Below are positions 1 to 31,518 of a stretch of 40,358 nucleotides of DNA, piece by piece. The position numbers and the translations under genes are program-made. Location of the stretch: positions 1 through 40,358 of IMG/VR virus record IMGVR_UViG_2877953467_000003; one strand, given 5' to 3'. The stretch's first letter is position 1. Every line of letters begins with the position of its first letter. Source of the DNA: a virus (Duplodnaviria; Heunggongvirae; Uroviricota; Caudoviricetes). The notes under the pieces were generated by a model that was not told the origin of the DNA, ran no database searches, and was given only the letters and a program-made list of their open reading frames with translations.

Positions 1-933
1 ATGGACAACGACAAAATTGATCAACACAGCGACGAAATTGAAGTTGAGAGCGAAGAAAAAGAGCGCGGCAAAAAAATAGAAATAGATGAAGACCGACTCC
101 CCTCCCGGGCGATGGCAATTCATGAGCATATCCGCCAGGATGGTGAAAAAGAGCTGGAACGCGACGCAATGGCGCTACTGTGGTCAGCCATTGCGGCGGG
201 TCTGTCGATGGGCGCTTCGTTACTGGCAAAAGGGATATTTCAAGTCGAACTGGAAGGTGTGCCGGGCAGCTTCTTGCTGGAGAATCTCGGTTATACCTTT
301 GGTTTTATTATCGTCATTATGGCCCGCCAGCAATTATTTACCGAAAATACCGTGACTGCGGTACTACCCGTCATGCAAAAACCGACAATGAGCAACGTCG
401 GCTTACTTATGCGATTATGGGGCGTCGTGCTGCTGGGTAATATTCTCGGGACAGGTATTGCTGCATGGGCATTTGAATATATGCCTATCTTCAATGAAGA
501 AACTCGCGATGCATTTGTCAAAATCGGCATGGATGTGATGAAGAACACCCCCAGCGAGATGTTTGCCAACGCGATCATTTCCGGCTGGCTGATCGCCACT
601 ATGGTTTGGATGTTTCCTGCTGCGGGTGCGGCAAAGATTGTGGTGATTATATTGATGACCTGGCTTATTGCACTGGGTGACACCACCCACATCGTTGTCG
701 GTTCTGTTGAAATCCTCTATCTGGTGTTTAACGGCACGCTGCACTGGAGCGATTTCATCTGGCCCTTCGCACTACCTACTTTAGCCGGGAACATCTGCGG
801 CGGCACCTTTATCTTCGCGTTAATGAGTCATGCACAGATTCGTAACGACATGAGCAACAAGCGTAAAGCAGAAGCACGCCAAAAAGCAGAACGTGCGGAA
901 AACATTAAGAAAAATGATAAAAACCCAGCATAA
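1..933 (+). CDS. yfdC: Formate/nitrite transporter family inner membrane protein YfdC
   Basis: 310 aa polytopic membrane protein recognised as E. coli YfdC; lies immediately upstream of argW as in K-12. Confidence 0.8.
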   Translation: MDNDKIDQHSDEIEVESEEKERGKKIEIDEDRLPSRAMAIHEHIRQDGEKELERDAMALLWSAIAAGLSMGASLLAKGIFQVELEGVPGSFLLENLGYTFGFIIVIMARQQLFTENTVTAVLPVMQKPTMSNVGLLMRLWGVVLLGNILGTGIAAWAFEYMPIFNEETRDAFVKIGMDVMKNTPSEMFANAIISGWLIATMVWMFPAAGAAKIVVIILMTWLIALGDTTHIVVGSVEILYLVFNGTLHWSDFIWPFALPTLAGNICGGTFIFALMSHAQIRNDMSNKRKAEARQKAERAENIKKNDKNPA

Positions 934-1008: not shown

Positions 1009-1083
1009 GTCCTCTTAGTTAAATGGATATAACGAGCCCCTCCTAAGGGCTAATTGCAGGTTCGATTCCTGCAGGGGACACCA
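1009..1083 (+). tRNA. argW: tRNA-Arg (anticodon CCU)
   Basis: 75 nt cloverleaf read from sequence: acceptor GTCCTCT/AGGGGAC, anticodon loop CTCCTAA, T-arm GCAGG-TTCGATT-CCTGC, 3' CCA. Confidence 0.9.
1069..1083 (+). repeat. attL core (15 bp direct repeat CTGCAGGGGACACCA at tRNA 3' end)
   Basis: Exact copy found again at 38655-38669; the two copies bracket all phage genes. Confidence 0.7.
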
Positions 1084-3800: not shown

Positions 3801-4385
3801 TTACTCCGGATATTTAAAAATTACGTAGGTATGCGAAGGGCAGAGTTTGTTAAGCACGCACTCGACAACGGTGTCGCCCCAGATACGCAGTGCGGAATCA
3901 CAGGGATCGCCACATGTCATCCAGGTGATGTTGGTGGCGGCTGGCATGTTGACCTGCCAGTAATACCGCCATTCCGGCGCATTCACTGCGTCAGTACAGG
4001 CCGATGAGCAGGTGAACGTGCTTTTATCGTATCGCGTGATAGTGGCGTCTGGTCTGCCCAGGGCAGCAAGCTGTGCAAGATAAAAATCCTCATTGATGCC
4101 GCCCGCCAGATTAACCTTCGCATCCAGCCGTTGCTGACGCTGGCGAAGGGTCTGTGTCCCTGCGGGAATACATTCATCCGGCAGACCGCACAGACGCTCC
4201 CAGCGGTTTATCAGTTCAGTGGTGGTGCGCGGATCCAGCTCCCGCATCAGGGCATCCGCACGCTGATGAACACGGGTTAATGAAGGTGCCGCACCGGCAA
4301 TCGCCGGATCGCTGGCTGACCACGCCGGACCGGGTGGCAACAGTGCCGACAACAGGCGGATGTAATCATCGTTTGTCACGTCCAT
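3801..4385 (-). CDS. Mu gp48-like tail protein (DUF2313/YmfQ family)
   Basis: Position and sequence character consistent with Mu gp48 family, between baseplate J and tail fiber. Confidence 0.65.
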
Positions 4386-23538: not shown

Positions 23539-23614
23539 TGGTGCTGGTTAACGGACTTGAACCGCTACCCATTCGCTTACAAGGCGACCGCTCTACCATT
23601 GGAGCTAAACCAGC
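23539..23614 (-). tRNA. Phage-encoded tRNA, anticodon UGU (Thr-like)
   Basis: Hand-folded 76 nt cloverleaf on minus strand: perfect acceptor GCTGGTT/AACCAGC, anticodon loop CUUGUAA, T-loop TTCAAGT, CCA end; one mismatch in anticodon stem. Confidence 0.55.
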
Positions 23615-23619
23615 ATATT

Positions 23620-23694
23620 TGGCGGGACAGCGTGGACTCGAACCACGATAAGAAGGTTAACAGCCTTCCGTAATGACCTTTATACGACTGACCC
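23620..23694 (-). tRNA. Phage-encoded tRNA, anticodon GUU (Asn-like)
   Basis: Hand-folded 75 nt cloverleaf: anticodon stem GAAGG/CCTTC, loop CUGUUAA, T-arm CGTGG-TTCGAGT-CCACG, CCA end; acceptor stem has one U-U mismatch. Confidence 0.5.
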
Positions 23695-26323: not shown

Positions 26324-26400
26324 GACTTCCCTCTCCCCCAAATAAAAAGGCCTGCGATTACCAGCAGGCCTGTTACAAGCTCAGTGATGTAGATGGTCAT
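26320..26400 (-). CDS. 26 aa hydrophobic micro-protein, translationally coupled between dnaB-like and ninB
   Basis: Hand-translated [26 protein letters not shown]; ATG overlaps the helicase stop, TGA overlaps the ninB ATG. Confidence 0.35.
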   Translation of the reverse strand: MTIYITELVTGLLVIAGLFIWGRGKS

Positions 26401-27851
26401 CAGAATCCCCCTTTCTTCTTGGACTGCGGTTCCTCGCGTTCACGTCGGCGCATTTCAGCAGACTGTTGGTCTGTGTCATAAATAGCGCCATTTGCCTGAA
26501 TGCAATACACCGTGCCGGTATTGCCATGACGATTGAGACGAAGGATTAGTTCGGTTTCACCAGGTGGAACACTGTCATCAAAAGCACCTTCACGATGGAT
26601 CCCCACCCAATAATCGCAATCCTGTTCAATCTGCCCTGTATCTCGCGAGTCACTTGGTAATGGGCGTTTATTGGTTCGGCTTTCCAGTGCGCGGTTAAGC
26701 TGTGTCAGAAGCACAACAACGCAATCAAGCTCTTTGGCAAGGTTCTTCAGTCCTTTGGTGATCATGCCGTAAGCAAGGTCGTTGCGATCGGCCTTCTCAG
26801 CAGTCATTAGTGTCAGGTAATCGACCAGAATCATGCCAACACATCCTTTTTCTCGCTTGATTCGACGGCTTTCGCTAACGATTTGAGCCAGAGATAATCC
26901 CGGCGTGTCGTCGATGTATAGCAGGTCGATTTCACTCAAACGATTAGCTGTTTCGATCGCCCTGTTGAAGTCACCATCGTAATCACCCTGATAGCCGTCA
27001 TCAGCGTCATTTGTCGCCGGAAGGTAAAAAATATTCGGGTTAACACCTGACTTCTGTCCCACCAGTTTTTCCAGTATCTGGTCACCTGGCATTTCAAGGC
27101 TGAACATCAGAGCGGGCTTTTTCTCATGCACTGCGCAGTTGATTGCCATCTGGCTGTATAGCGTCGTTTTCCCCATCTTAGGGCGAGCGCCAATGACAAA
27201 CAGAGAGCCTTTCACCAGACCTTTCGGTGACAGCATCCTGTCCAGCGATGGGATCCCTGTGCTCATTCCTCGTTGTTCGCCTGACGGGTCAAATCGCTTC
27301 TCAAGGTCGCTAACCCAGTCTTCCATGACCTCACCAAATGAGCGAAGGCCGCGACGCGATCCGGTTTTTGCATGGTCTGTCAGTTGCGTGAAAATCGCCT
27401 GAATAGCTTCGTACTTCTGCGTTGCAGTCATTCCGTTGCGGGAATATAGCAATTCCGTCGCTTCAGTCATGCGGTTGATGGCGTAGCGTTCCATTGCGGT
27501 TTCGCGAACCTGCATTGCATAGGCAACGATGTTTGCGGCGCTTGGCGTGTTCTTTGCGATCTCAGCGATATAAGCAAAACCGCCAACAGACGCCGTTAAC
27601 GATTTACGCTCCAGTTCATCGAAAAGCGTCAGGCCATCTACTGGCTTTTGCTCCCGGTGCATTCTGGTTATTTCTTCGAAAATGATTTTGTGTGGTCGGC
27701 TGTAAAATGAATCAGGCTTCAGCATCGCCAGAACTTTCTGGACGCGCTCACTGCTGTCATCATCCAGAAGCAATCCACCAATCACCGCCTGCTCTGCCTC
27801 GATGCTATGGGGCGGCGCATAAAAATTATCGGTCATCGTGTTCACCCTCAC
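26400..27851 (-). CDS. Replicative DNA helicase (DnaB family, P22 gene 12-like)
   Basis: 483 aa; N-terminal DnaB domain (SIEAEQAVIGGLLLD) and C-terminal RecA-like ATPase (GARPKMGKTT Walker A). Confidence 0.85.
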   Translation of the reverse strand: MRVNTMTDNFYAPPHSIEAEQAVIGGLLLDDDSSERVQKVLAMLKPDSFYSRPHKIIFEEITRMHREQKPVDGLTLFDELERKSLTASVGGFAYIAEIAKNTPSAANIVAYAMQVRETAMERYAINRMTEATELLYSRNGMTATQKYEAIQAIFTQLTDHAKTGSRRGLRSFGEVMEDWVSDLEKRFDPSGEQRGMSTGIPSLDRMLSPKGLVKGSLFVIGARPKMGKTTLYSQMAINCAVHEKKPALMFSLEMPGDQILEKLVGQKSGVNPNIFYLPATNDADDGYQGDYDGDFNRAIETANRLSEIDLLYIDDTPGLSLAQIVSESRRIKREKGCVGMILVDYLTLMTAEKADRNDLAYGMITKGLKNLAKELDCVVVLLTQLNRALESRTNKRPLPSDSRDTGQIEQDCDYWVGIHREGAFDDSVPPGETELILRLNRHGNTGTVYCIQANGAIYDTDQQSAEMRRREREEPQSKKKGGF

Positions 27852-28716
27852 GAACTTTCAGGTATGTATTATCGTTAAGCAGGAAATCAAATCCCTTTTT
27901 GTGCCAGACGGTTCCGCGCTGATGGTTTGGGCGCTCTTCGAACATCCATCGGCAATTTTCGCCTACGTAGCTCAAATAATTTCTCCAGTCCTGCATCGTG
28001 AACCCATGCCCGTCAAGCTGGCGGGTTATCACTCCGGCTTTGCGCCAGAACGTTCGGATCTGGTTTTTACGCTTGTCATTCAGTGCGCGGATTCTTGGCG
28101 CTTCAGGAAGGATTTCGTGGTAAGCATCGACAACATCCTGACAGCTAACGGAAGGTTTTTTCTTGTCAGACTTTTTGTCTGCTGTGGCACTCTCTAATAC
28201 GTCAGTATTAGAGATATTATTTATATTATTGTTTATGGACAACCGTTGGACAACCGTTGGACAATCTCCGCTGAGAGCCGCGCCATTACTGCTGTTTGCG
28301 TTGGACAACCGTTGGACAACCGTTGGACAATTTTTTGCCTGAAAATCGTCATATTTAACGATTGTAAACAGGCTAAATTTCTTCCCCATCGAGCAAATAT
28401 TAAGCATTCCTTTCGACTCAAAAGTCCGCAATAAGCTCCGAACTTTGTTGTCGGGGATGAATGTTTCTCTGACCAGCGACGGGCGTCCAGTTATCATCTG
28501 ACCGCGATCAACAGTTATCGGACCGATATCCGTATTGACGACAGTAGATTCGTGATTAGCCTTGAGGATTAAGTGAAGCCAAAGATGTACTGCCTGAGAG
28601 TCCTTATAGAGCCTGCTGTCCATAAACTGGCGGTGTATAGAGACATACCCCATACTGGATGCCTCCTGATGTTGTACAGGGTTATGCCTGTAATCAGCTA
28701 ACTTAACGACGCCCAT
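27826..28716 (-). CDS. Replication initiator protein (lambda O / P22 gene 18-like)
   Basis: 296 aa; iteron repeats inside the coding region (repeated peptide CPTVVQRLS); upstream of helicase with overlapping ends. Confidence 0.75.
   Translation of the reverse strand: MGVVKLADYRHNPVQHQEASSMGYVSIHRQFMDSRLYKDSQAVHLWLHLILKANHESTVVNTDIGPITVDRGQMITGRPSLVRETFIPDNKVRSLLRTFESKGMLNICSMGKKFSLFTIVKYDDFQAKNCPTVVQRLSNANSSNGAALSGDCPTVVQRLSINNNINNISNTDVLESATADKKSDKKKPSVSCQDVVDAYHEILPEAPRIRALNDKRKNQIRTFWRKAGVITRQLDGHGFTMQDWRNYLSYVGENCRWMFEERPNHQRGTVWHKKGFDFLLNDNTYLKVREGEHDDR
28237..28380. repeat. Phage replication origin: two clusters of three 11 bp iterons plus AT-rich region
   Basis: CCGTTGGACAA x3 at about 28240-28265 and x3 again at about 28300-28330, followed by AT-rich stretch; within the O-like gene as in lambda ori. 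Confidence 0.7.
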
Positions 28717-28898
28717 GTTTCACTCCTGCTTTGGCTAGTCTGTAAACACCAACAAGGCGCTCTGCGAACGCCCTGTTATTTGCTGCGGCTACCACTAATC
28801 CCTCAGGTGAATCAGGGTGTCGAATCTCTTCTTTTTCCTGGTATTTCTTACGACGTTTTGTCATAATTACTCCTGTGGATTGATCCAGTCTTTCTACA

Positions 28899-29180
28899 TC
28901 AGGCCTCGAAGAATTCGCCGTTCTTCGGGGCTTTTTCTTTTGTCAGGTAATTGGCAAGCCGCTTAGTCAGCTCAGCCATTTCATCGTCTTCGATTCCGTA
29001 TTCCAGAACAGCCAGCATCATGCTTACCTGCGAGAAGAAACCATTCTTCCATCGGCTTACCTGATATTCAGGAACCCCCATTGCTCGAGCGAATGTCTTC
29101 TGCCCCATCAGTGCCAGTTTGTTCAGCAAGGCTGACTCGATGCGAGCCGCTTTCTTGCTTTTAGTTGCAATAGTACCCAT
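28899..29180 (-). CDS. cII: CII-like transcriptional activator
   Basis: 93 aa; RIESALLNKLALMG ... QVSRWK ... FSQVSMMLAVLEYGIEDDEMAEL closely parallels lambda CII. Confidence 0.8.
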   Translation of the reverse strand: MGTIATKSKKAARIESALLNKLALMGQKTFARAMGVPEYQVSRWKNGFFSQVSMMLAVLEYGIEDDEMAELTKRLANYLTKEKAPKNGEFFEA

Positions 29181-30513: not shown

Positions 30514-31518
30514 ATGAATTCTATTGAAAATCATGATGTTTATGTGTATACAGGCGATATTCATCGTGATGGTTATCTTGATCTCACCAATGAAATCAAG
30601 AAACGTAAGTCACAACATGGATTAAAAGAGAATGTTATCTTCTGTGTTGCTACTTATGGCGGTGATCCAAATGCAGGTTATCGTATAGGTAGAGCTCTAC
30701 AGCACCATTATGAAACGGTAACACTTTTAGTTGTTGGACCATGCAAAAGTGCTGGTACACTAATAGCTATAGCAGCCAATAAACTTGTTATTGGTGACAT
30801 GGGGGAGCTTGGGCCATTAGATATCCAACTGAAAAAAAACGATGAAATAGGTGAGATGAGTTCTGGTTTAGCTATCATGACAGCTCTTGATGCTCTAAAG
30901 GAACGCTCTATTTCAGCGTTTAACTCACACCTTGTTAAGATAAGATACGAAAATCAGATAAGTACCAAAATGTCTGCTGATATCGCGACCAGACTTACAG
31001 AAGCGTTGATAGCACCTATGGCCGCACAGATAGATCCAATAAAGCTTGGTGAACATCAGCGCGCAATGAGTATAGCTATCACTTATGGCCAACGATTAGC
31101 AGACAAACCAAGCAGCCTAAAAGAAGGGGCGTTAGGCAAACTAATAGCCTCATATCCTTCACATGGATTTGTTATCGACAGAAAAGAAGCCAAGGAACTT
31201 TTCAAGTGTGTTGAACATCCTGAAGGCATAACAGAAATACTCTATAATCTTTTCTGTGACAAAATTCATAGTGGTGAAATTCCAACATTTGGAAAGCCAA
31301 GAGTAATGGATTTCACTGTTTCCCAACAAGATAAAGAGGAATACACTAATGCCGAAGAATCTGCAACCGGAGATGGAAGTTCTCAACAGGATGCTGGAAA
31401 GCCAGATCCAGGAAGGTCGCGATCTGGCAAGAAAAGCGGAACAACACCTGAACGAGATCAAGAAGGAATTGGAGCCGTATCAATTCAACCACCAGATGAA
31501 CAGCAACCTAATGCGTGA
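30514..31518 (+). CDS. ClpP/S49-like serine peptidase family protein at the rex-equivalent position
   Basis: 334 aa; ClpP/crotonase-like motifs (VATYGGDPNAGYRIG, GPCKSAGTLIAIAANK) plus polar disordered C-terminal tail; AT-rich gene; family assignment from motif recognition only. Confidence 0.55.
   Translation: MNSIENHDVYVYTGDIHRDGYLDLTNEIKKRKSQHGLKENVIFCVATYGGDPNAGYRIGRALQHHYETVTLLVVGPCKSAGTLIAIAANKLVIGDMGELGPLDIQLKKNDEIGEMSSGLAIMTALDALKERSISAFNSHLVKIRYENQISTKMSADIATRLTEALIAPMAAQIDPIKLGEHQRAMSIAITYGQRLADKPSSLKEGALGKLIASYPSHGFVIDRKEAKELFKCVEHPEGITEILYNLFCDKIHSGEIPTFGKPRVMDFTVSQQDKEEYTNAEESATGDGSSQQDAGKPDPGRSRSGKKSGTTPERDQEGIGAVSIQPPDEQQPNA

Follow-up and report, generated by a model that had tools for sequence, protein, structure and literature searches.

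In a stretch of tailed-phage DNA of 40,358 nt (IMG/VR record IMGVR_UViG_2877953467_000003; the whole stretch is called the window below), a group of short tandem repeats lies inside a gene that resembles a replication initiator gene. The question raised by this locus is whether the repeats are the iterons of a replication origin, as a first-pass annotation had proposed, or whether they have another meaning, either for the protein that they encode or for the transcription and control of the region. As a lambdoid (pro)phage the window is a mosaic, in which SfIV/SfII-like myovirus structural genes are combined with an Sf6/HK633-like early region.

Anatomy of the repeat array and its surroundings

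Read on the + strand, the repeat unit is CCGTTGGACAA. Exact copies are found at 28243, 28254, 28309 and 28320, a copy with one mismatch (GCGTTGGACAA) at 28298, and a truncated sixth unit, TTTATGGACAA on the + strand, matches the repeat at 7 of its 11 bases. These four exact copies and the one-mismatch copy are the only matches to CCGTTGGACAA with 0-1 mismatches in the whole 40-kb window; matches with two mismatches number four elsewhere in the window, against 12 expected by chance. On the gene strand the iteron is TTGTCCAACGG, 11 bp in length, and the six units (I1 to I6, arranged 3+3) are head-to-tail direct repeats. Tandem Repeats Finder (TRF) detected two arrays with a period of 11, 28236-28264 and 28299-28330, each of them 100% matching. 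The description of the locus as two clusters of three tandem 11-bp repeats thus holds, with the correction that one cluster consists of two full copies and a truncated one; the distance between the clusters, given as about 35 bp, was measured as 33 bp. Because the gap is 33 bp, the six units fall on a single 11-bp lattice, on which the triplets are 66 bp (6 x 11 bp, 22 codons) apart. The locations of the features are summarized in Table 1.

Table 1. Features of the putative origin and of the genes around it (positions in the window)
Feature	Position	Strand	Description
DnaB-like replicative helicase gene	26400-27836	-	Pfam DnaB 6e-32, DnaB_C 3e-60
Initiator gene	27826-28716	-	ORF, 296 aa
Initiator domains	aa ~20-128; ~129-188; ~190-296		winged helix; low-complexity linker with origin DNA; C-terminal domain
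Inverted repeat	28191-28214		arms TCTCTAATAC / GTATTAGAGA, 4-nt loop TGAC on gene strand
AT-rich stretch, inferred DNA unwinding element	28215-28235		20/21 bases A/T (95%); sequence TATTATTTATATTATTGTTTA
Iteron triplet 2	28232-28264	-	I4 28264-28254, I5 28253-28243 = TTGTCCAACGG; I6 28242-28232 = truncated TTGTCCATAAA
Spacer between triplets	28265-28297	-	33 bp, non-repeat, G+C-rich; keeps reading frame
Iteron triplet 1	28298-28330	-	I1 28330-28320, I2 28319-28309 = TTGTCCAACGG; I3 28308-28298 = TTGTCCAACGC

The repeats lie, as had been stated, within the initiator coding sequence and encode the peptide CPTVVQRLS, which occurs twice in the protein (aa 130-138 and aa 152-160). The peptide is repeated because a triplet of 11-bp units spans 33 bp and so fills 11 codons, each of its units being read in a different frame. 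The spacer and its equivalents in relatives have a loose common pattern across subfamilies that otherwise differ, for example ..GCGCGGCT..CAGCG.. and ..CAAGGCT..CAGAG.., which may stem from a second binding site or from the linker peptide alone.

The initiator matches PHROG 345, 'replication initiation O-like' (1e-84). Pfam and NCBIfam searches with it gave nothing above threshold, the sub-threshold match to DUF7376 being the only one at E<=1, and searches of the PDB sequences with profiles of the initiator family found no relatives. An AlphaFold model of the N-domain, built from an alignment of 66 sequences, has winged-helix topology with moderate confidence (pLDDT 75), and its Foldseek matches are generic winged helices (E about 5e-3). 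A model of the whole protein from a shallow alignment of 11 sequences (overall pLDDT 50.8) was set aside in favour of the N-domain model; in it the linker, with pLDDT below 50, is predicted to be disordered.

Upstream of the initiator gene are a cII homologue (Pfam 7.6e-30), a Cro-like gene and an S24 repressor gene, and downstream are the DnaB-like helicase gene and then ninB. The helicase gene starts with an ATG at 27836, so that it has 11 nt in common with the end of the initiator gene, and an overlap of the same length is annotated in Sf6; there is thus no separate loader gene between initiator and helicase.

Some further features of the surroundings were recorded. An ORF of 53 aa (28703-28864, - strand) that overlaps the initiator start matches phrog_1331 (1.4e-37), and its counterparts at the same position are HK620 hkaW, P22 orf48 and an ORF of Pantoea phage PA-1; the label 'tail protein' that these counterparts carry in GenBank/RefSeq looks like a propagated mis-annotation. 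Between this ORF and the cII homologue is an oop-like antisense unit (28851-28933) with a strong terminator-like hairpin on the + strand (28901-28933, 14 pairs and a T-run), and the conserved pO/5'-oop block ACTGGATCAATCCACAGGAGTAATTATG (PMC3349717) can be read, in reverse complement, at about 28851-28878. An ORF of 334 aa (30514-31518, + strand) beside the cI-like repressor gene has a weak match to a ClpP-like SDH-type serine protease (29.6 bits, cut-off 31.3) and perhaps belongs to the immunity region as an accessory gene. Three tRNA genes were found with Rfam, at 1009-1080 (+), 23542-23614 (-) and 23623-23694 (-); the latter two are inside the phage, and the first, outside the SfIV-like structural block that begins near 3.6 kb, could belong to a flank of host DNA or of an attachment site.

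The array is not new as an element. Over all 891 nt the initiator gene has 98.3-99.2% DNA identity to the 'O' genes of HK106, mEp234, IME10, Sf6 (gene 43), HK75, HK629 and others. The rep_origin feature of the Sf6 GenBank record (28385-28480 in Sf6 coordinates) maps exactly onto 28236-28331 of the window, and rep_origin features are present at the same place in the records of HK620 and Salmonella phage L. All three features are marked as putative and span the repeats alone, without the AT stretch or the inverted repeat. In the phage L paper, six 11-bp TGTCCAACGGA repeats are described as the likely origin, identities of 25% with P22 gp18 and 15% with lambda O are given for L gp18, and genetic work is cited in which the replication genes of L and P22 were exchangeable only as a block, with distinct specificity. 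No experimental test of an Sf6/L-type origin was found in the searchable literature, to which the HK97/HK022, HK620 and Sf6 genome papers do not belong. The array is therefore an ordinary element, which the records of near-identical phages already mark as a putative origin, and as a finding the repeat block adds little; what the present analysis contributes are modest refinements, namely how far the putative origin extends, the covariation of an inverted repeat, the relation of the initiator to G38P, and the pairs of iteron and recognition helix.

Selection on the repeats and variation of the recognition helix

One script was applied to 97 loci, which were taken from annotated phages, from GTDB genomes and from IMG/VR. 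The scan of genome contigs yielded 8 loci; the first scan of viral contigs gave 80 near-identical loci, which are useless for covariation, and it was followed by a scan led by a divergent member. The array is kept in all 97 relatives, plaque-forming phages included. The 3+3 arrangement with the 66-bp offset was observed in 96 of the 97 loci, the exception (locus L126) being frameshifted; an AT-rich stretch follows the sixth unit in 97/97, and truncation of the sixth unit takes the same form (..CCA[TC]A) in nearly all iteron types.

One way to account for the repeats is that they matter as a duplicated linker peptide alone and have no role as DNA. CPTVVQRLS does occur twice, in a segment predicted to be disordered, and the number of modules differs among natural proteins: initiators of 274, 296 and 318 aa differ, by DNA alignment, by whole 22-aa modules, which correspond to 3, 6 and 9 iterons. 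The 11-bp unit, however, has every triplet read in three frames, which makes the repeated peptide a by-product. The substitution pattern in nine diverged genes with the TGTCCAACG core (those of the window, Sf6, L and ST160, of prophages of Edwardsiella, Citrobacter, Escherichia sp. and Dryocola, and one more) also speaks against a peptide-level explanation. Only 1 of 13 third positions at which synonymous change is possible varied in the cores, compared with 57 of 67 in the N-domain (Fisher 1.2e-7). When all bases were counted, variation was seen at 2/51 positions of the TGTCCAACG cores, 7/8 positions of the inter-core dinucleotides and 152/318 positions of the N-domain. The residues encoded across the inter-core dinucleotides change freely (V/D/G/N and L/M), and other subfamilies retain the 11-bp DNA plan with quite different peptides. 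Since the cores are frozen at synonymous sites while the dinucleotide-encoded residues vary, the constraint is on the DNA and not on the peptide. Judged by these sequence comparisons, the 9-bp iteron cores are under DNA-level selection, and a purely peptide-level meaning of the repeats is scarcely credible.

The 3-iteron form of 274 aa is from S. flexneri CP000266 (locus L184), where an IS4-family transposase gene stands in place of cro/cI, so that the prophage is decayed; the 9-iteron form of 318 aa is from E. coli OZ282436 (L186), in which the cI-cro-cII-initiator-helicase block is intact. The existence of one- and three-module variants means that there is no strict need for six sites, with the one-module example coming from the decayed prophage.

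The loci fall into 14 iteron consensus groups, which include TGTCCAACG, TGTCCGGAA, TGTCCAGCA, AATCCAAAG, GTGCCAACA, GTCCCAGAA, TTACCAACA and RGCCAACGA as well as an GTACCAGCA group formed by HK022, HK620 and VT2-Sakai. When the iterons were compared with the N-terminal domains across phages, the iteron type was seen to change together with the N-domain recognition helix. The predicted recognition-helix residues (R93/S94 in the window) track iteron base 3 without exception in 72 distinct N-domains, with [KR][SA] and T in 46, KY and G in 9, QY and A or C in 16, and RT and G in 1, counts that are phylogenetically non-independent. This is the pattern that a co-evolving protein and binding site would give. 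The proposal of origin iterons with a specificity of their own thus gains support from comparison, through the rep_origin annotation, the selection on the cores, the conservation of the array and the tracking by the helix, and a function as origin would be consistent with all four.

Natural domain swaps point in the same direction. A prophage of Dryocola sp. BD626 (L016, 1453-3083) has a window-type N-domain, TGTCCAACG iterons, the AT stretch and the inverted repeat together with a lambda-O-like C-domain, and this chimeric initiator gene is followed by a lambda P gene (Pfam 4.9e-65), which was found in no other relative. Another locus (L180) has a lambda-O-like C-terminus similar to that of L016. 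In the window and in locus L017 the helicase encoded downstream is DnaB-like. We concluded from these swaps that the N-domain and the iterons form the origin-recognition unit and that the C-domain matches the helicase-delivery partner. At least 14 natural pairs of iteron and recognition helix, together with the domain swaps, should be handy for the study of winged-helix specificity or for the design of orthogonal phage replicons.

The AT-rich stretch, the inverted repeat and the extent of the putative origin

The AT-rich stretch that had been reported to follow the repeats was placed on the wrong side of them. The segment 28331-28380 has a GC content of 32-36%, but it is upstream of the iterons in gene orientation, is only moderately AT-rich and codes for conserved N-domain residues; the extreme AT content is at 28215-28235, on the other side, downstream of the iterons in gene orientation, and both this stretch and the inverted repeat beyond it fall just short of the coordinates first given for the feature (28237-28380). 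By nearest-neighbour free energy no 21-bp duplex in the whole 40-kb window is less stable than 28215-28235, and the minima for lengths of 31 bp and 41 bp likewise span it. Since duplex stability is lowest there, 28215-28235 is likely to be the unwinding element. DnaA boxes in the window number 69 against 70.7 expected, which is no enrichment, with no good box at the origin, and an Rfam search gave nothing at the origin. A pairing between the iteron triplets in a fold of the single-stranded DNA was considered and rejected, as it relies on the GT inter-core dinucleotide, which is lost in L and ST160 (GA).

Beyond the AT-rich stretch is an inverted repeat that is perfectly complementary in 97/97 loci. 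It occurs in 20 distinct arm variants, with arms of 8-10 bp and a 4-nt loop (TAAC in 55 loci, TAAA in 31 and TGAC in 11; consensus T[AG]A[CA]), and begins 22 nt past the second triplet in 72 loci. Among the 20 variants, 98.9% of the cells pair, 9 of 9 pairs carry changes on both sides, and one-sided changes are absent; covariation is 0.927 compared with 0.215 in shuffles (reached by 0 of 500) and at most 0.18 with the partner slid, these counts too being phylogenetically non-independent. TGTCC-type iterons are paired with 14 different inverted repeats, seven inverted repeats are common to several iteron types, and an identical inverted repeat is found with different C-domain families. As the arm sequence is independent of both iteron type and C-domain family, the data point to a structural constraint on the arms rather than a sequence-specific site.

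Such an inverted repeat followed by a T-rich run could also be an intrinsic terminator that ends transcripts running antisense to the initiator gene. A consensus scan, with a loose pattern, does read 28191-28214 plus TATTATTTAT as terminator-like on the + strand, and in the phage L record an automatic prediction puts a terminator at the corresponding site, on the opposite strand. The stem, however, has 3 G-C pairs only and the T-run is interrupted, and no antisense promoter is known or evident downstream. Moreover, G-U/G-T wobble pairs are found in 0 of the 180 pair cells, all changes being strict Watson-Crick, which favours a constraint on two-stranded DNA over one on an RNA hairpin. The annotated origins of lambda and P22 share the layout of an AT-rich stretch and then an inverted repeat. 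We therefore regard a terminator as very unlikely, and a structural part of the origin as the better reading of the inverted repeat. By this comparison the origin would reach beyond the repeats, over about 28191-28330, and comprise the unwinding element and the inverted repeat.

A further alternative accepts that the iterons bind the initiator and holds that they mainly serve autoregulation, a barrier to transcription or replication forks, or handcuffing-type control. The sites are within the initiator's own transcription unit, and gp38 bound to SPP1 oriR has been proposed to stall forks (PMC6316719). On the other hand, the array borders on the window's least stable duplex, with a conserved inverted repeat next to it, in the order of the lambda and P22 origins, and stands beside its AT-rich element in the same order as in SPP1 oriL; the window has no second array that could be the true origin, and the L/P22 genetics cited in the phage L paper lead one to expect an origin within this block. 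Such a control function as the main role of the iterons is therefore improbable.

We put at roughly 0.85 the probability that the array is the vegetative (theta-type) origin of the Sf6/L/HK75-type lambdoid replication module, situated where its own initiator gene codes for the linker. From the sequence anatomy, DNA-level selection, covariation, homology and fold we infer the following course of binding, unwinding and helicase recruitment. The N-terminal winged helix would bind the six 11-bp iterons through the core TGTCCAACG, and the 11-bp phasing would set the iterons on roughly one face of the helix, with the two triplets 66 bp apart. The nucleoprotein complex, aided by rightward transcription through the gene, would melt the AT stretch, while the inverted repeat, at the far edge of the melted region, would act as a hairpin or cruciform structure, as its covariation suggests. 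The C-terminal domain would recruit the phage DnaB-type helicase without a loader of the lambda P type, a step suggested by the gene content and the natural domain swaps.

A more extended proposal, which we regard as tentative and on balance doubtful, is that the inverted repeat is an obligatory, structure-specific third element of the origin, that the class is a loader-less enterobacterial branch of the G38P initiators, and that module number tunes firing. If so, the inverted repeat might be a hairpin or cruciform that is extruded on melting and positions helicase loading or priming, and firing of the origin might be adjusted through the count of its 66-bp modules (3, 6 or 9 iterons).

Kinship of the initiator and comparison with known origins

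The initiator had been called O-like and its origin a mirror of the lambda ori. As a functional analogy the name is apt, and the succession of iterons, AT-rich stretch and inverted repeat in gene orientation is indeed that of lambda; the N-domain, however, is no homologue of lambda O or P22 gp18, and the units are 11-bp direct repeats. The window protein gave no match to Pfam Phage_rep_O (PF04492) at E<=1, compared with 5.7e-36 for lambda O and 6.9e-38 for P22 gp18; BLASTP against lambda O found nothing, and in hhalign the N-domain profile scored 0.5% against lambda O and 0.7% against P22 gp18. By BLASTP against P22 gp18 the C-domains alone are similar (25% identity, E 2e-4). A 96% C-terminal hhalign match of the full-length family alignment (A6) to lambda O was discarded as an artefact of the chimeric Dryocola row.

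With SPP1 G38P the results were quite different. BLASTP aligned aa 20-127 of the window protein with aa 2-112 of G38P at 28% identity (E 8e-13), and the N-domain family profile matched G38P in hhalign at 98% (E 2.7e-13). The initiator N-domain is thus a winged helix homologous to SPP1 G38P; more distant relatives of the initiator match Pfam PF09681 Phage_rep_org_N or Phg_2220_C. Given this homology and the missing Phage_rep_O match, G38P and oriL of SPP1 are the closest characterised relative of the origin-binding module. No published link between G38P and HK022 was found in the searchable literature. The kinship would mean that the 'O-like' initiators of the Sf6/L/HK022/VT2-Sakai group, Stx-converting phages included, are of the G38P type and not of the lambda O type in their origin-binding domain.

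In SPP1, gp38 binds the direct repeats of oriL within gene 38, beside an AT-rich unwinding element, and the system has been reconstituted in vitro (PMC6316719). In the SPP1 gene (our locus L102) a period-11 array (3938-3988) and then an AT-rich 9-bp array (3996-4027) follow directly after the N-domain. The likeness to the window therefore extends to an origin inside the initiator gene after the N-domain, to period-11 repeats followed by an AT-rich element, and to a DnaB-family phage helicase downstream. SPP1 differs in having 4.6 contiguous repeats, compared with the 3+33 bp+3 of the window, a second origin (oriR) and another type of C-domain, for the near-identical organizer of phage 268TH003 matches Phg_2220_C (PF09524) and the window protein does not. 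It also has a separate helicase loader, gp39, for which the window has no gene between initiator and helicase, and no inverted repeat was found at oriL; with these two differences the analogy is incomplete. The RepA proteins of staphylococcal multiresistance plasmids (PDB 4pql, 4pt7, 4pta) belong to a plasmid system and are a generic winged-helix match with no detectable sequence homology.

The putative origins in Sf6 gene 43, HK620 O and phage L gene 18 are the same element as that of the window, with no substantive difference. The TGTCCAACG cores recur in phage L. In HK620 and HK022 the layout is unchanged but the iterons are TACCAGCA, and in HK022-type genes the AT stretch, the inverted repeat and the C-domain are almost exactly those of the window whereas the N-domain and the iterons differ.

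Lambda resembles the window in that the DNA-binding and partner-binding domains are encoded on either side of an origin placed centrally in the initiator gene, and in that the N-domain with the iterons and the C-domain with its partner act as exchangeable modules. It differs in its iterons, which number four, measure about 18-19 bp (18 bp in the annotation) and are each dyad-symmetric, and in its partner, the loader P, which hijacks the host DnaB, whereas the window has a phage DnaB-like helicase. In P22 the gp18 N-domain is of the Phage_rep_O type and the repeats are of ~20 bp with an GGTAAAAC core. P22 nevertheless shares with the window the gene order cII-like, small ORF, initiator, DnaB-like helicase, and its origin too is inside the initiator gene; with lambda it has in common the order that we describe here, in which, read along transcription, the iterons come first, then the AT-rich stretch and then the inverted repeat.
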